Source: Thermoanaerobaculia bacterium (GTDB lineage: Bacteria; Acidobacteriota; Thermoanaerobaculia; Multivoradales; JAGPDF01). From it: a stretch of 64,000 nt of DNA. Shown here in pieces: positions 31,752 through 37,700 of this stretch. Position numbers: made by a program. The first letter of the stretch is position 1, and every line of letters starts with the position of its first letter. Location of the stretch: contig JASNYQ010000003.1 in the NCBI GenBank assembly GCA_048500095.1, positions 451,510 to 515,509 of the forward strand, given 5' to 3'.

Positions 31752-34700
31752 CGTCGGCTCGTCGAGGAGCAGCAGGTCGGGCTCGGTCAGGAGCAGGCGG
31801 CAGAGCGCCACGCGCCGCTTCTCGCCGCCCGAGAGGGTCGAGACCTCCTGGTCGGCGGGGGGGAGGCGCAGGGCGTCCATCGCCACCTCGAGATGGCGGT
31901 CGAGCTCCCAGAGGTTCTGGGCGTCGATCTGGTCCTGGAGGCGCCCCATCTCGGCGGCGGTCTCGTCGGAGTAGTTCGCGGCCAGCTCGTCGTAGCGCGC
32001 GAGGATCGCCTTCTTGCCCTCGACCGCCTCCTCGACCACCTCCTGTACGGTCTTGCCCGCCGGCAGCACCGGCTCCTGCGGCAGCATGCCGGCCGTGAAT
32101 CCGTCGAGCAGCTTCGCCTCGCCGTCGAAGTCGGGGTCGAGCCCGGCCATGATCCGCAAGAGCGTCGACTTGCCGGCCCCGTTGTGGCCGATGACGCCGA
32201 TCTTGGCGCCGTGGAAGAACGACAGCCAGATCCCCTTGAGGATCTCCTTGCCCTGCGGCGTGACCTTGCGCAGGTTCTTCATGTGGTAGATGAACTGCGG
32301 CATCCGGGAGACCTCGCTCGGGGAGTGGACGGGAGCGCGGGAAGCGGCCGCTTGCGCGGCGCCCGCGGGCGCACTCTATCGCGCCGCCGCCCCTCCCGGC
32401 GCCGGCACCAGTGCTCGGGGGCAGGGAAACACCAGCCTGTTCGGGTGGCGCGCGAGTGATGTGATCGCATCATGATACGCGGGCCGGGAAGGGTCGGCTC
32501 CCGCGCCGCGCGGGCCCATCCGTGGGCCAGGCGCAGAGAGGAGAGGGCCAGGTCGTGACGAGCGATCGACAGGCCAGCGGGTGGATGCAAGCCGACCTGG
32601 AGCCCTGGACGCGCGGGCTTCCGGCTCCCCCGGTGACCGTGGTCGGCTGCGGCAACTGGCTGATGGCGGTCGACCGGGTCGGACCGCGGGTGCTCCGCGA
32701 GCTCGCCGGGCGGCGCCGTCCCGGCGTCGCGCTGGCCGACGTCGGCACCACCGGCCTGGGCCTCCTCGACCGCCTCTCCGGGCAGGAGCTCCTGATCCTG
32801 GTCGACGCCTGTGTCGGGCGCACGGCCCCGGGCGAGGTCCTGGTCTCCCACCCCGACCCCGAGGCCGCCCTCCCGCTGCCCACCGGCACCCACCAGATCG
32901 GTCCCCTGGAGGTCCTGGCGATCGCCCGCGAGCTCTATCCCGAGCGCCTCCCGCGGCGGATCGCGCTGGTGCAGGTCGAGACCGGGGGGCTGGAGCCGGA
33001 GCAGGAGGAGGCGGCGTGCGGGCGGGCGGTGGCGGCGGTCGAGCGGCTGCTCGACGGCACCCCGGGCCGATCCGCCGCCGCGGACGCGCCGTCCGCGGCG
33101 GCCTGAACGAGGAGGTGACCGTGAACCAGAGTCAGGAGCTCGAGACGGTGCAGGGGCTGATGGTCTTCCTCGCCTCGATCGCCGCCGGCCTCGAGGACAC
33201 CATGGGCCGCGGCGCGGGGGCGATCACCTACCGCGCCGGGCGTACCACCGGCCGCAGGACCGAGGTGGCCGCCGAGGAGAAGGACGACCTCCTGGTGGCG
33301 CTCGACAAGGTCTGGGACGAGATGTGCCGGCTCGGGCTTCGCTGGCGCTTCCAGCCCTACCAGCCGGCCGGCCAGGAGAGCCTGATCACCGAGGAGGGCG
33401 GCAAGCGCAAGCTGCACCTGGTCTTCGACAACTGCATGGTGCGCTGCTCGCTCTTCCGCTACGGGCACCCCCAGAAACTCTCCCTCTGCCTCATGAACCA
33501 CGGCCTCTTCTGCGGCCTGGTCGAGAAGATCCACGGCGGCACGGCCAACCTCGAGATCCTCCACGCCGGCGAGAACGCCTGCCTGAAGGTCCTCACGGTG
33601 GAGCGATAGGGGGCGGGGATGAGCGCCAAGGCCCGCGTGTCGATCGAGTGGCTGTCGGGTTGCTCGGGCTGTGAGCTCGGCATCGTCGACCTGCACGAGA
33701 AGCTGCTCGAGGTGCTCGACGAGATCGAGCTCGTGCGCATCCCGATCCTGATGGACGTCAAGGAGTACGTCGCGGCCGACGTGGGGATCCTCACCGGCTC
33801 GATCCGCACCGAGCACGACCGGCACGCGGCGCGCGAGATGCGCCGCCTCTGCAAGTCGATCCTCGCCTTCGGCACCTGCCCGGTCTACGGCGGGCCGCAC
33901 TCCTCGGCCTATCCCCACACCACCGACGAGCTGCTCGACGGGGCGTACCGGAGCAACGCCAGCACCGTGACCTCCGAGGTGCCCACCGACGTGCCGCGGC
34001 TGCTGGCGGGCAACCGCCCGCTCGACAGCGAGATCGAGGTCGACCTCTACCTGCCCGGCTGTCCGCCGCACCCGGCGTTCATCTTCGAGGCCCTGATGTC
34101 GCTGGTGCGCGGCCGCGCGCCGGGGATCGGGCGCCACAGCGTCTGCTTCCGCTGCGAGCGGAAGATGGTCAAGACCGACCGCAAGACGCTGCGCCGCGCC
34201 TTCGAGGGCGAGTTCGACCCGGAGATCTGCTTCCTCTCCCAGGGCTGCCTCTGCTTCGGCTCGGTCACCCTCGACCGCTGCCTCGCCCCCTGCACCAAGG
34301 TGGGGGTCCCCTGCTTCTCCTGCGGTGGCCCCTCCGAGCCCGTCATCCTCGAGCCCCAGAAGGACGTGCGCAGCGAGGTGGCGCTGCGCATGAGCCACCT
34401 GACCCAGATCCCGGAAGCGGAGATCGTGGCCGAAATCGAGCGCCAGGCGAAGACCCACTTCGCCTACGCCATGGCCTCTCCCGTCTTCCGCCAGAAGCCG
34501 ACGTTCCTGCTCAAGAAGTGGACGCAGTCGCCGACTCCCGCAGGAGGTACCGCATGAGCCGCACCATCGCCATCGATCCCGTCACGCGCATCGAGGGTCA
34601 CGCCCGCGTCGAGATCGAGCTCGACGACGCCGGCAAGGTCCGCAGCTCCGCCTTCAAGGTGATGGACTTCCGCGGCTTCGAGACCTTCCTGCGCGGCATG

Positions 34701-37700
34701 CAGGTCGAGATGATGCCGACGGTGACGTCGCGCATCTGCGGCACTTGACCGCAGGCCCACCATCTGTCCTCGGCGAGGGCAGTCGACAAGGTCTTCGGCA
34801 TCACCCCCCCGCGGGGCGCGACCCTTCTGCGGGAGGCTCTGAACTTCGGGTCGATCCTCCACTCGCACGCCGTCCACTTCTTCGCCCTCGCGGCGCCCGA
34901 CCTCCTCTTCGGGGTCGACGCCGATCCCGCCGACCGCAACATCGTGGCGATGCTGCGGGCCTTCCCCGAGGTGGCCCGCAAGGCGCTCGACCTGCGCAGC
35001 CTCGGGCAGCGGGTCACCGAGGTGATCGGCGGCCGCGGCACGCACCCGGTGTCGGCGGTGGCCGGCGGGCTCGCGGCGCCGCTCGACGGCGAGCGCCACG
35101 CGGCGCTGGTGCGGCTGGCCGAGCAGGCGGTGCCGCTCGCCGCCGCGCTCGTCGACAGCTCGCGCGATGCCCTGCTCGCCAAGCGCGACTTGCTCCTCTC
35201 GCTGCCGCTCGAGACCCACTACCTCGGTACCGTGAAGGACGGCGCCCTCGACCTCTACGACGGCGACCTGCGGCTGCGAGCCCCCGACGGGTCGGTCTTC
35301 GACTTCCCCGAGGACGACTGGGGGAAGTACTTCGAGGAGGAGACCACCTCCCGCTCCTACGCCAAGCCGGTCTACTTCCGCCACCCGGACGGGCGGCGGG
35401 TCTCCTGCCGGGTGGGGGCGCTGGCGCGCCTGAACTGCGCCGACCGCATCGGCACCCCCCTCGCGCAGGCGGAGCTGGAGCGCTTCCGCGAGGTCGGCGG
35501 CTTCCCCTGCCACCAGACGGTCATGTACCACTACGCCCGGCTGGTGGAGATGCTGCACGCGGCCGAGCGGCTCGCCGAGCTCGCGCGCGACCCGGAGATC
35601 CTCTCGCCCGACGTGCGGGGGATCCCGCAGGGCAAGCCGCGCCGGGCCACCGCCCACGTCGAGGCGCCGCGCGGCGTGCTCGTCCACGACTACGACGTCG
35701 ACGAACGGGGGATCGTCACCCGCGCCAACCTCGTGGTCGCCACCCAGCACAACATCCTGGCGATCAACGACACCCTCGGCCTCTCGGCCGAGCGCTACCT
35801 CGACCGCGGCGACGCGGAGCTGCTCAACGGCATCGAGTTCGGGATCCGCTGCTACGACCCCTGCCTCTCCTGCGCCACCCACCGCCTCGGCGAGATGCGG
35901 CTGGAGGTGACGGTGCGGCGCGGCGGCGAGGTCGTGCGGACGGCGAGGAGGGTCTGATCATGGCCACGGTGCGAATCGAGGAGCCGGGCTGCCGGGGCTG
36001 CACGCTCTGCGCCGACCTCTGCCCGGTCGCGGTCTTCGCCCTGCGCGAGGGGGACGGCATCGCCACGGTGGTCCACGCCGAGCGCTGCATCGGCTGTCTC
36101 TCCTGCGCCTACGCCTGCCCGTCGGGCTGCATCGAGGTGGGCGACTACCTGCAGTTGCGCCCGTTCCACCGCATCGAGGGGCATGCGGCGCTCATGCGCC
36201 GCTTCCTCCAGGAGCAGCCGCTCGCCGACGCCCTCACCCCGGCCGATCTCGAGGAGGCGTGGAGCGACGTCGCAGCGCGCCTGCGGGCGCTCGCCGGGAC
36301 GGTCACCGAGACGATCGGCTCGGGCTACCGGGCGATCGGGCGGCGGGCCGGGGCGATGGCCGCCGCCCACCTGCCCGAGATGTACGAGGAGGCGGGGCTC
36401 GAGCAGGTCCTCGGCGGGCTGCGCGAGCGCTTCTCCTACGGCTTCGACTTCCACCTGGAGGGGGAGGCCGCGGTGCTCGACTTCCGCCCCTGCAGCCTCT
36501 GCAAGGTGGTGCAGAGCACCGGGGAGACGGTCGGGCAGGCGCTCCTCTGCCACCTCTTCCACGAGTACTGGGCGGGGTTGCTCTCGGCGTTCGTGGGCAC
36601 CAAGTACCGCTACGAGGTGCCGGTGGCCGGAGAGAGCTGCCGCATGGAGCTGCGGCCGGCGTGAGCGGGGAGACGATCCTGCAGTTCGTGCGCACACCCG
36701 CGGCGCAGGGAGGGGCCGGCGAGGAGGCCGGGGCGCGCCCCGAGGCGGTGGGCCGCCTGCGGCAGGCCGACCTGGAGCGGCTGGTGCGCGGCCTGCCGAG
36801 CGGGGTGGCCGCGGGCGTGGTGGAGCTCTCGAGCGGCATGCCGGTGGCCTTCAGCACCCTGGACCAGCACTCGAAGCGGGAGTTCGACCTGCTGGCCGCG
36901 GCCACCACCGGGCTCTTCCACGACACCACGGTGACGACGATCGAGCGCATGGACCGCGAGCACCTCGCCTCGCCCGAGGAGCGGCGCGAGGCGCTGCAGC
37001 AGGTGATCGTGCAGTCGCGGCACATGCTCTACCTCTTCCTGCGCTGTCGCCGCGAGCCGGATCTCGTGCTCGTCTCGCTCTGCCGCGCCGACGCCAACCT
37101 GGGTCTCGCTCTCATGGTGAGTCGCGAAGCGCTCCAGCGGCTGGAGCTCGCGCCGTGAGCGCGGGAATCGAATGCAGCGCGCGGGAGAGGAGCCGGTGGC
37201 GGCGGGCAAGCTGATCGTCGTCGGCCCGGGCGAGGCGGGCAAGAGCACGCTCATCGCGCGGCTCTCCGCGGACGCCGTGAATCTCGCGGTCAACGGCCGC
37301 ACGGTGGCGATGGATCATGGCCTGGTGCGCCACGGCGCGCTCACGATCTCGCTCGTCGGAGTCCCCGGCCAGGCGCGCTTCGCGCCGGTGCGCGAGGCGC
37401 TGGCCCAGAGGGCGGCGGGGGCGATCTGGGTCCATCCGGAAGGGGAGGTGCCGGATCCGCACACCGCGGCGCTCCTCTGTCCAGGCGGTGGTCCGCCGCT
37501 GCCGTACGTCGTCTACGTCAATCAGCGCTCGGGAAGCGGGGACGGCACGGGATTCGCGCCGCCGGAGGGCCTCGCCCCTCCGCGGCGGCTGATCCACGGT
37601 AGCCTCGTCGAGCGGCAGGCCAACCTCGCAGCGCTGCTCGACGCCGCTGCGGAGCTGCTCGGGGCGCCCGGCGCGCCCCGGGAGGAAGAGGTGATCGGAT

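Follow-up and report, generated by a model that had tools for sequence, protein, structure and literature searches.

What is a hydrogenase doing among genes for signalling proteins, and is the TGA that interrupts its large subunit gene a stop or a selenocysteine (Sec) codon? The locus lies in a window of 64,000 nucleotides from a Thermoanaerobaculia bacterium (contig JASNYQ010000003.1, positions 451,510 to 515,509), in which a genome-wide survey's note had placed a Mvh-type group 3 hydrogenase with Sec in its N-terminal metal-binding motif. We lean towards the view that the nine-gene block (Table 1) encodes a cytoplasmic Mvh-like [NiFe] hydrogenase in which UGA 65 specifies Sec, giving a Ni-Se-Fe bridge, and which serves a GTPase switch of the Roadblock/MglA type as its H2/redox sensor.

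Table 1. Genes and sequence elements of the hydrogenase block (positions in the window)
Feature	Position	Strand	Basis
Hydrogenase maturation protease	32585..33106	+	TIGR00072, 75.4 bits vs cut-off 47.45; PF01750
Protein A, V4R/Bet3 fold, 162 aa; four Cys invariant within the clade, no Pfam family	33121..33609	+	AF2 model, pLDDT 82.5
Hydrogenase small subunit, MvhG-like, 312 aa; 12 invariant Cys (three predicted [4Fe-4S])	33619..34557	+	PF01058; best PDB match MvhG 5odc_E, E 7.6e-83
[NiFe(Se)] hydrogenase large subunit of 467 aa, with CxxU in the N-terminal and CxxC in the C-terminal motif	34554..35957	+	Best PDB matches MvhA 5odc_F, E 1.7e-109, and 7t2r_D, E 3e-108
TGA in frame at codon 65; predicted Sec as bridging ligand	34746..34748	+	Opposite the second RICGIC Cys in alignments to 5odc_F and 7t2r_D
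Predicted bacterial SECIS upper stem-loop, 8 pairs, loop GGC at 34772-34774	34764..34782	+	Fits consensus in PMC13188914
Fusion of a 2x[4Fe-4S] ferredoxin and V4R-fold domain B, 234 aa	35960..36664	+	Fer4 families, residues 4-60; structural similarity to V4R clusters in Atlas, TM 0.6-0.7
Divergent Roadblock-like protein, 165 aa (weak assignment)	36661..37158	+	hhalign to Roadblock alignment 76.9%, E 2e-5, 111 columns
MglA-like small GTPase	37172..37702	+	G1 GPGEAGKST, TVAMDHG, GVPGQARF, G4 degenerate (read from sequence); TIGR00231 E 2.6e-6, below cut-off; Ras/Roc weak
Roadblock/LC7 (MglB-like) protein	37699..38067	+	PF03259, E 1.9e-21
Second Roadblock/LC7 protein	38064..38486	+	PF03259, E 1.1e-11

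A group 3 large subunit interrupted by TGA

The large subunit is encoded by one frame of 467 codons whose sole internal TGA, codon 65, falls in RICGT-U-PQAHH. As the survey's note had it, this is one gene divided by the gene calls, and gene callers split its relatives at the same point: 15 of the best 120 database homologs begin right after the TGA site. The C-terminal motif is the ordinary DPCLSCATH with TGC for its Cys codons, which sets the protein apart from the canonical [NiFeSe] enzymes (Hys, Vhu, Fru); in Vhu, Sec occupies the C-terminal terminal site (UxxC on VhuU), whereas here it would occupy the N-terminal bridging site.

The RxCGxC and DPCxxCxxH motifs, the Glu and the Arg are those of Mvh-like group 3 enzymes, and the sequence lies nearest MvhA/MvhG; among NCBIfam models VhuA is the top match, yet below its cut-off (346.8 vs 800). 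Group 2b regulatory hydrogenases have a PAS kinase partner, undergo no C-terminal processing and have a narrowed gas channel, and regulatory hydrogenases carry Ile before the second Cys. The present protein falls outside group 2b, being a group 3 sequence with a 24-residue tail beyond the last His and a protease of its own; Thr precedes its second N-terminal ligand, a difference that counts against a sensor role.

Sensor-fold and GTPase genes in place of energy partners

The gene content downstream and upstream extends the earlier description. The gene noted as ferredoxin-like does encode a ferredoxin domain but is really a ferredoxin-V4R fusion, with a second V4R gene upstream, and the operon does not end at 36664 but continues through the Roadblock and GTPase genes to 38486. 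Protein A gives a Foldseek match to the PoxR/MopR sensor domains (E 7e-6) and, in structure comparison (VIA), Z scores of 11.0 to BcsD, 10.2 to DmpR and 10.0 to TRAPP; C105, C123 and C154 are invariant over 42 rows, and no sequence relative was found in the PDB. Protein A and domain B are paralogs by hhalign (96.8%, E 2e-10). Both combine a V4R/Bet3/H-NOX fold with a putative Cys/His metal site, and neither matches PF02830. The divergent Roadblock-like protein has no Pfam match, and BLASTP against its neighbour returned nothing; none of its 26 scanned relatives matches Robl_LC7, and four also carry a GTPase-like, kinase or phosphatase domain in a fusion. The tentative assignment of the GTPase to the MglA family draws on its G1-G3-like motifs and its two PF03259 neighbours, with G4 degenerate and family scores below cut-off. 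A promoter and terminator scan gave 0 promoters and one terminator-like site, which is chance level. Pieces of the operon occur in four metatranscriptome runs, solely as contigs with flat cover across operon and flanks, and therefore do not demonstrate that the genes are transcribed, alone or together. Among these contigs, one of 491 nt crosses the TGA, with one unplaced difference.

Related loci form a V4R-linked clade (support 1.0, FastTree), with V4R genes in 42 of 43 loci. Roadblock, PATAN, GTPase or MCP genes stand near 20 of the 22 clade loci with enough flank and near none of 54 group 3 loci outside the clade; this contrast is overstated because the neighbour profiles were seeded from the clade and 50 of the 54 are related Chloroflexota genes. 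The outputs vary across the clade (GTPase, PATAN/ParA, MCP with CheW), a GTPase gene is found near only some loci (7 others), and no signalling gene was seen over 10 kb on each side of L262 or of L057, a 79% relative. Because sensor-fold and small-GTPase genes stand in place of the usual energy partners, the enzyme is likely an H2/redox sensor rather than a metabolic enzyme.

Sec could also be real in an enzyme that is metabolic, a soluble ferredoxin-reducing or H2-evolving hydrogenase that the V4R pair and the Roadblock/GTPase proteins scaffold, position or regulate, so that information passes from switch to enzyme. The complete catalytic set, processing tail and protease suit this alternative, as does the use of the V4R/Bet3 fold as a scaffold (BcsD and TRAPP score about as high as DmpR); genes for ParA/MinD and OmpA domains often lie nearby, and H2 production has been suggested for the Geobacter Mvh (PMC7894505). 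We nevertheless find it doubtful: the ferredoxin is fused to V4R rather than free, the genome already has three other hydrogenases (uptake, NAD-linked, membrane), each with its own partners, and the sister loci show signal outputs (MCP in 3 of 4, CheW in 2 of 4). Those loci (L261-L264), through which we compared the window with the Geobacter sulfurreducens Mvh cluster and its MCP MvhV (PMC7894505), belong to the same clade and hold V4R, small subunit, large subunit, ferredoxin, V4R, protease and mostly MCP genes, at 45-46% identity to the window's large subunit and 41-46% to its V4R genes. They differ in that their ferredoxin and V4R are separate, the ligand is Cys and the output is MCP/CheW; here the two are fused and the output is Roadblock/GTPase.

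An ordinary group 3c MvhAG, served by MvhD/HdrA or a diaphorase encoded elsewhere and with incidental signalling neighbours, is improbable, even though MvhA and MvhG are its nearest solved relatives and a HoxFU diaphorase is present. HoxFU is paired with its own HoxYH; the genome, 98.6% complete, has 0 PF02662 (MvhD) matches, and tblastn with two HdrA-like queries found nothing in it; and MvhD accompanies none of 43 clade loci against 22 of 24 in another CxxU lineage. The survey's label of Mvh-type stands by sequence but not by partners. Nor does the block resemble group 3d or bifurcating NiFe enzymes (Hox, HydABCSL), with no NuoEFG-like gene in the operon or its scanned neighbours and a small subunit of 312 aa rather than a short one. 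MvhAGD-HdrABC (5odc) and the Vhu [NiFeSe] enzyme share with it the likeness of large and small subunits (best PDB matches), a 12-Cys small subunit and a protease-processed tail, whereas MvhD/HdrA are replaced here by V4R and ferredoxin-V4R partners and the residue before the second ligand is Thr.

In the predicted complex, the ferredoxin-V4R protein docks on the small subunit with a score of 0.86 (best of 3 controls 0.00), at least 80% of contacts in agreement between runs and partner pLDDT of at least 78. Of 157 solved complexes 116 attain the score mark, as do 2 of 215 mismatched pairs; these counts are only roughly valid here, and part of the pass may be likeness, because the solved entries 9sw6 and 9sfi hold MvhG together with (poly)ferredoxins.

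The TGA codon is probably decoded as selenocysteine

The TGA aligns with the conserved Cys of homologs and is followed by the hairpin that the survey's note had pointed out. The bSECIS consensus calls for a loop of 3-9 nt with G within its first two positions, 16-37 nt past the UGA (PMC13188914); here the GGC loop caps an 8-pair stem 23 nt downstream. The hairpin folds at -22.2 kcal/mol with z -2.51 on 52 nt, and z only -0.7 to -1.6 on three other lengths folded. A GTDB scan gave 76 loci, 21 with at least 57% identity; the codon was read in 22 of the 76, and 6 more were put in the tree as Cys. TGA occupies the codon-65 position in 8 of the 21 close loci (6 Thermoanaerobaculia, 1 Myxococcales, 1 deltaproteobacterium) and TGC or TGT in the other 13; the CCTCGGCGAGG core is present in all 8 and in none of the 13, which agrees with the earlier count of 8 in 54 apart from its denominator. 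A pattern scan of metagenomes (119 stretches, 16 of them not hydrogenases and excluded) added 18 TGA matches from the V4R-linked clade, and chance is therefore ruled out.

Seven of the 8 stem pairs are kept in all 26 distinct TGA sequences, as are codons 71 CTG, 73 TCG and 75 AGG; AGG makes up 2.5% of Arg codons genome-wide and stands at codon 75 in 1 of 13 Cys relatives. Of 93 invariant columns with 4-6-fold codons, just 4 keep a single codon over 19 genes, and 3 of these lie inside the stem. No compensatory (two-sided) changes were found in the upper stem, and RNAalifold found no covariation; the sequence is fixed instead. SelA, SelB and SelD score above their cut-offs, and a tRNA-Sec(TCA) is present, as previously reported; SelB occurs in 8 of 8 TGA genomes against 7 of 13 Cys genomes. 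Sec is thus very likely inserted at UGA 65, as the bridging ligand.

Decoding as Cys by a SECIS-dependent tRNA-ReC (SelC*), leaving a plain [NiFe] enzyme, is named as a limit of such predictions in PMC13582414, and the Cys relatives show Cys to be workable at the site, but the sole TCA tRNA of the genome bears the hallmarks of a canonical tRNA-Sec (an acceptor stem of 8 bp, a long variable arm and a G discriminator), beside one ordinary tRNA-Cys and one SelB over cut-off. This makes tRNA-ReC very improbable, although no search with a model dedicated to it was made. A true stop (pseudogene or sequencing error), though one base change from TGC/TGT, is hardly credible, refuted by the recurrence of TGA at this codon in 26 distinct sequences from a number of lineages, in which the frame beyond it is intact and the synonymous codons of the hairpin do not vary.

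The suggestion that CxxU marks a whole clade fails, because TGA and Cys forms are interleaved: the tree (all are quick trees) implies 4 changes, 3 forced by starred branches, and a single Sec clade is rejected (AU test, p=0.00023). CxxU is also commoner elsewhere, 70 of the 119 metagenome matches belonging to a second, MvhD-linked group 3c lineage, as compared with 18 in the V4R-linked clade. As read from these sequences, CxxU is present in two separate group 3 lineages, one of them V4R-linked. Separately, eight distant class-level matches carrying one TGA were retrieved; none had an N-terminal Sec, the 2 stops displayed both lay beyond the C-terminal motif, and none was displayed in the other 6.

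Relation to known systems

The CxxU position itself is not new, as the survey's note allowed: PMC13582414 cites its earlier prediction in one group 3 and two group 1 sequences (Baltazar et al. 2011) and report 27 group 4 sequences (Takano et al. 2026). The present sequences resemble these in the Sec codon at the second bridging ligand, the G in the SECIS apical loop, the Sec/Cys mosaic and their in silico nature; Takano et al. treat group 4 only, whereas CxxU here occurs in two group 3 lineages. With the group 2b HoxBC-HoxJ system (HydDB, PMC5037454) the block would share its proposed role, H2 oxidation read as a signal, but HoxBC-HoxJ is of group 2 and has a kinase partner. The available text of that source gives sensory roles to NiFe 2b and 2c and FeFe C1-C3, with none seen for group 3. 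Small GTPase and Roadblock genes, PATAN (DUF4388) neighbours and the V4R/Bet3 fold are shared with the MglA-MglB/PATAN-linked GTPases (PMC4316618) and the Asgard GTPase/Roadblock/TRAPPC3-V4R proteins (PMC10933270). The word hydrogenase is absent from both papers, PMC2253512 does not mention hydrogenase, and in literature searches with little coverage of subscription papers neither a hydrogenase linked to V4R or Roadblock genes nor a survey of CxxU in group 3 came up.

Proposed mechanism and implications

In the sensor model, SelB would bind the GGC hairpin and insert Sec, and the Hyp proteins with the operon's own protease would mature the enzyme, both steps being strongly indicated. H2 would be split at Ni-Fe and, judging by the conserved ligands, electrons would pass through the three small-subunit [4Fe-4S] clusters; the ferredoxin domain of the fusion is predicted by the model to dock at the distal one of these, next to V4R protein A. 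Gene context suggests that the ferredoxin's redox state may alter the V4R pair and, through it, the Roadblock (MglB-like) proteins and the GTPase, a switch that would likely steer polarity, motility or enzyme placement. Selenium would be an optional tuning, because Cys forms persist in the same clade. Engineered Sec at the bridging ligand (C79U) lowered the KM for H2 sevenfold, to 5.3 from 36.8 uM (PMC8020662, Table 1), which would suit a sensor; all four Sec variants had lower KM, while C79U retained 13% activity and was less tolerant of prolonged O2 than the native enzyme (PMC8020662). Tentatively, the block may represent an unlisted group 3 H2-sensing class that passes electrons to a ferredoxin-V4R/V4R pair with Roadblock-GTPase output (chemotaxis in sister lineages), with a natural Ni-Se-Fe bridge for sensing lower H2 in the Sec branch.

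In the described [NiFeSe] enzymes that we found, Sec is the terminal Ni ligand, and a natural bridging Sec has only been predicted. Within the clade, natural Sec and Cys forms with 67-79% identity share the same operon, and such pairs would cleanly test what the Ni-Se-Fe bridge does. Because gene callers cut CxxU genes, these are under-represented in hydrogenase surveys and truncated in protein databases. If the enzyme is a sensor, many 'group 3c' enzymes in Acidobacteriota, Myxococcota and Desulfobacterota would not be Hdr-linked energy enzymes, and bacteria would possess an unrecognised route from H2 to the control of polarity or motility. Were the H2-sensing class real, a natural bridging-Sec hydrogenase would for the first time have a role, and bacteria would have a redox-driven unit made from the same folds as TRAPP and Ragulator.

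Results

Features in the window (positions counted from its first nucleotide)
Feature	Position	Strand	Remarks
Nine-gene operon	32585-38486	+	Neighbouring genes overlap or lie no more than 14 nt apart
[NiFe] large subunit, 467 residues	34554-35957	+	One frame, single internal TGA
In-frame TGA, codon 65	34746-34748	+	Motif RICGT-U-PQAHH
Thr codon before the second ligand	34743-34745		Motif RICGT
First tandem paralog	38720-41527		About 900 aa, repeated ELW-SDGT motifs
Second tandem paralog	41773-44427		About 900 aa, repeated ELW-SDGT motifs
Small gene pairs	26063-28521		Resemble toxin-antitoxin modules (PIN-like, nucleotidyltransferase-like), judged by eye

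The single frame of the large subunit gene bears out the genome-wide survey's note, which had described one 467-aa gene with an in-frame TGA at the second N-terminal ligand and an ordinary C-terminal DPCxxC, here DPCLSCATH in the translation. In alignments to MvhA (5odc_F, E 1.7e-109) and to 7t2r_D, the large subunit of a bifurcating NiFe enzyme, TGA 65 falls on the second Cys of the RICGIC motif. The residue before this ligand, which we take to be a gas-channel gate position, is Thr in 31/31 clade A loci and in 52/52 database proteins of the tree set, and Val or Ile in other group 3 rows. The second N-terminal ligand forms a bridge between Ni and Fe (PMC13582414).

Comparative data argue that UGA 65 very probably encodes selenocysteine. 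The TGA is followed at 23 nt by a stem of eight pairs closed by a GGC loop, in agreement with the consensus for bacterial SECIS elements (PMC13188914). Folding gives the stem modest z-scores (best -2.51, worst -0.72), and its conservation is the stronger evidence: across 26 distinct TGA sequences (the window, 8 GTDB loci and 18 metagenome loci, minus one duplicate), seven of the eight stem pairs are kept in 26/26, as are codons 71, 73 and 75 (CTG, TCG and AGG). Among 13 Cys relatives, individual pairs are kept in 0 to 11 and AGG, which makes up 2.5% of Arg codons in the window's genome, in one. Single-codon columns account for 4 of the 93 invariant multi-codon columns of 19 near full-length TGA genes, and three of these four fall inside the stem; the alignment of TGA sequences contains no two-sided covariation of the stem. 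SelA, SelB and SelD score above their cut-offs in the window's genome, which carries one TCA tRNA with canonical Sec features. Both the hairpin and the machinery reported in the survey's note stand. With some genomes incomplete, SelB is present in 8/8 TGA genomes versus 7/13 Cys genomes, and SelA in 7/8 versus 10/13. Judged from protein records rather than DNA, 15 of the best 120 database homologs start right after the TGA site, and the ends of one NCBI record coincide with those of a TGA gene from the A1 alignment. Two other candidate selenoprotein genes lie elsewhere in the window's genome (G000), at sites G000:C1:226778 and C3:576696 (-): that of SelD, which itself contains a TGA followed after 17 nt by a three-base GGG loop, and a SelW/Rdx-like gene with a CxxU motif.

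Within the class, 7/401 genomes have a match of at least 67%, six with TGA and one with TGT, and the GTDB scan finds TGA in 8/21 clade loci, the same number of TGA loci as in the survey's note, which set it against 54 related loci. A metagenome pattern scan listed 119 of about 180 estimated matches; among those listed, at least 18 belong to the window's clade and at least 70 to another group 3 type, the rest being 15 group 1-like or other and 16 not hydrogenases. In a tree with 23 full-length rows of the 70, these form a separate branch, and thus group 3 CxxU occurs in at least two separate lineages. The second adjoins MvhD (22/24 loci checked) plus HdrA-like or NuoEFG-like genes, and the hairpin core in its loci (L134-L211; e.g. 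L150, L173, L179, L203 and L209) is mostly GCCTCGGGTAAGGCC. In several of these loci MvhD is broken into two genes near residue 60-75, where a further Sec codon may lie. N-terminal CxxU is also seen in group 1-like large subunits (loci L132, L133, L155, L162, L172 and L187). Loci L037/L055 of another scanned genome (G121), from the same order as the window's genome, have a group 3 large subunit with ordinary C-terminal UxxC and MvhD pieces close by.

Sec and Cys rows are intermingled within the clade to which the window belongs: the 30 rows of known codon need 4 changes, a tree of 42 rows, which also takes in rows without a known codon, needs 8, and the AU test rejects a single Sec clade (p 0.00023 with a quick LG+G4 tree). 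The claim that CxxU marks a whole clade is therefore wrong; selenium at codon 65 is optional. Because the hairpin codons are identical, the sequences suggest one Sec gain followed by repeated returns to Cys.

The operon encodes, in order, a protease, protein A (V4R/Bet3 fold), the small and large subunits, protein B (a 2x[4Fe-4S] ferredoxin fused to a V4R-fold domain, Fd-V4R), a divergent Roadblock-like protein, an MglA-like GTPase and two Roadblock proteins. The model of protein A (pLDDT 82.5) resembles the sensor domains of PoxR/MopR/DmpR, BcsD and the TRAPP Bet3 subunits, no sequence relative of it was found in the PDB, and the second domain of protein B is its paralog. MvhD and HdrA were sought in the window's genome and not found; by the MvhD/HdrA partner test the branch falls outside group 3c. 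HypD is encoded in the genome as well, along with separate hydrogenases of the Hyb, HoxFUYH and group 4 types; in the group 4 cluster at locus L271 (G000:C1:1968000-1984000), genes for antiporter subunits and an Fdh-like gene accompany a large subunit with the C-terminal end DPCYSCTER. The tandem paralogs in the window are likely secreted beta-propellers, the first having no Pfam match.

V4R genes occur in 42/43 loci of the wider clade and MvhD in 0/43. If only loci flanked by 4.5 kb or more upstream and 1.5 kb or more downstream are counted, a gene for a Roadblock, PATAN, GTPase or MCP protein lies near 20/22 clade loci (the exceptions being L057 and L262) versus 0/54 other group 3 loci, a strong pattern rather than a clean statistic, since the neighbour profiles were seeded from the window's clade and the control loci are largely kin to each other. 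In four loci of the phylum of scanned genome G414 the genes run V4R, small, large, ferredoxin, V4R, protease, with an MCP in three, as in the Mvh cluster of Geobacter, where the MCP is called MvhV (PMC7894505). In a Cys-type sister clade of the same class (L265-L268) the order is PATAN, Roadblock, V4R, small, large, ferredoxin-V4R, protease, accompanied by a divergent block of ParA/PATAN genes. Seven loci (L065, L070, L071, L074, L146, L159 and L204) carry Roadblock and then an OmpA-domain gene directly 3′ of ferredoxin-V4R, often with a coiled-coil gene, suggesting envelope anchoring.

A three-chain model of proteins A and B and the small subunit, in which the last was the scored partner, reached a complex score of 0.86 (runs 0.86, 0.88 and 0.81), and the highest of three controls reached 0.00; the runs share at least 80% of contacts, with partner pLDDT at least 78. 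The score mark is passed by 116/157 solved complexes and 2/215 mismatched pairs, counts only roughly valid for this job, and likeness may help the score because solved PDB entries contain MvhG with polyferredoxin or ferredoxin chains. In the predicted model C176, C179 and C204 of the small subunit are in contact with the ferredoxin domain, the linker makes contacts at 141-146 and 239-248, and residues 111-116 of protein A contact 245-247. The predicted complex lends support to a putative binding and a putative electron path.

Discussion

The window's hydrogenase branch likely serves signalling. Most likely, H2 oxidation would reduce the fused ferredoxin of protein B; gene context further suggests, as the most likely course, that the V4R pair would report the redox state of this ferredoxin and that the Roadblock proteins would relay the V4R signal to the GTPase. 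The main rival, that this is a ferredoxin-linked metabolic enzyme placed or regulated by the V4R/Roadblock/GTPase proteins, appears rather unlikely, though it deserves serious weight. In the part of HydDB available to us, sensory roles are given for NiFe groups 2b and 2c only, and the literature searched, with most subscription papers outside the search, neither described a hydrogenase linked to V4R or Roadblock proteins nor surveyed CxxU in group 3.

N-terminal Sec has been described in 47 group 4 sequences (PMC13582414), a paper that also refers to Baltazar 2011 for CxxU sequences, one from group 3 and two from group 1; the portion of a 2026 review that we could consult enters MvhA with UxxC only. 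In E. coli Hyd-1, engineered Sec at the bridging ligand of codon 65 (C79U) left 13% activity, the highest value among four variants, and lowered the KM for H2 from 36.8 to 5.3 uM; the remaining Sec variants also had reduced KM, and C79U was almost inactive under prolonged O2 (PMC8020662). The feature in the window is real, and the bridging-Sec form, already predicted and unstudied, appears here in a hydrogenase branch outside the group 3c partner set that is likely involved in signalling.
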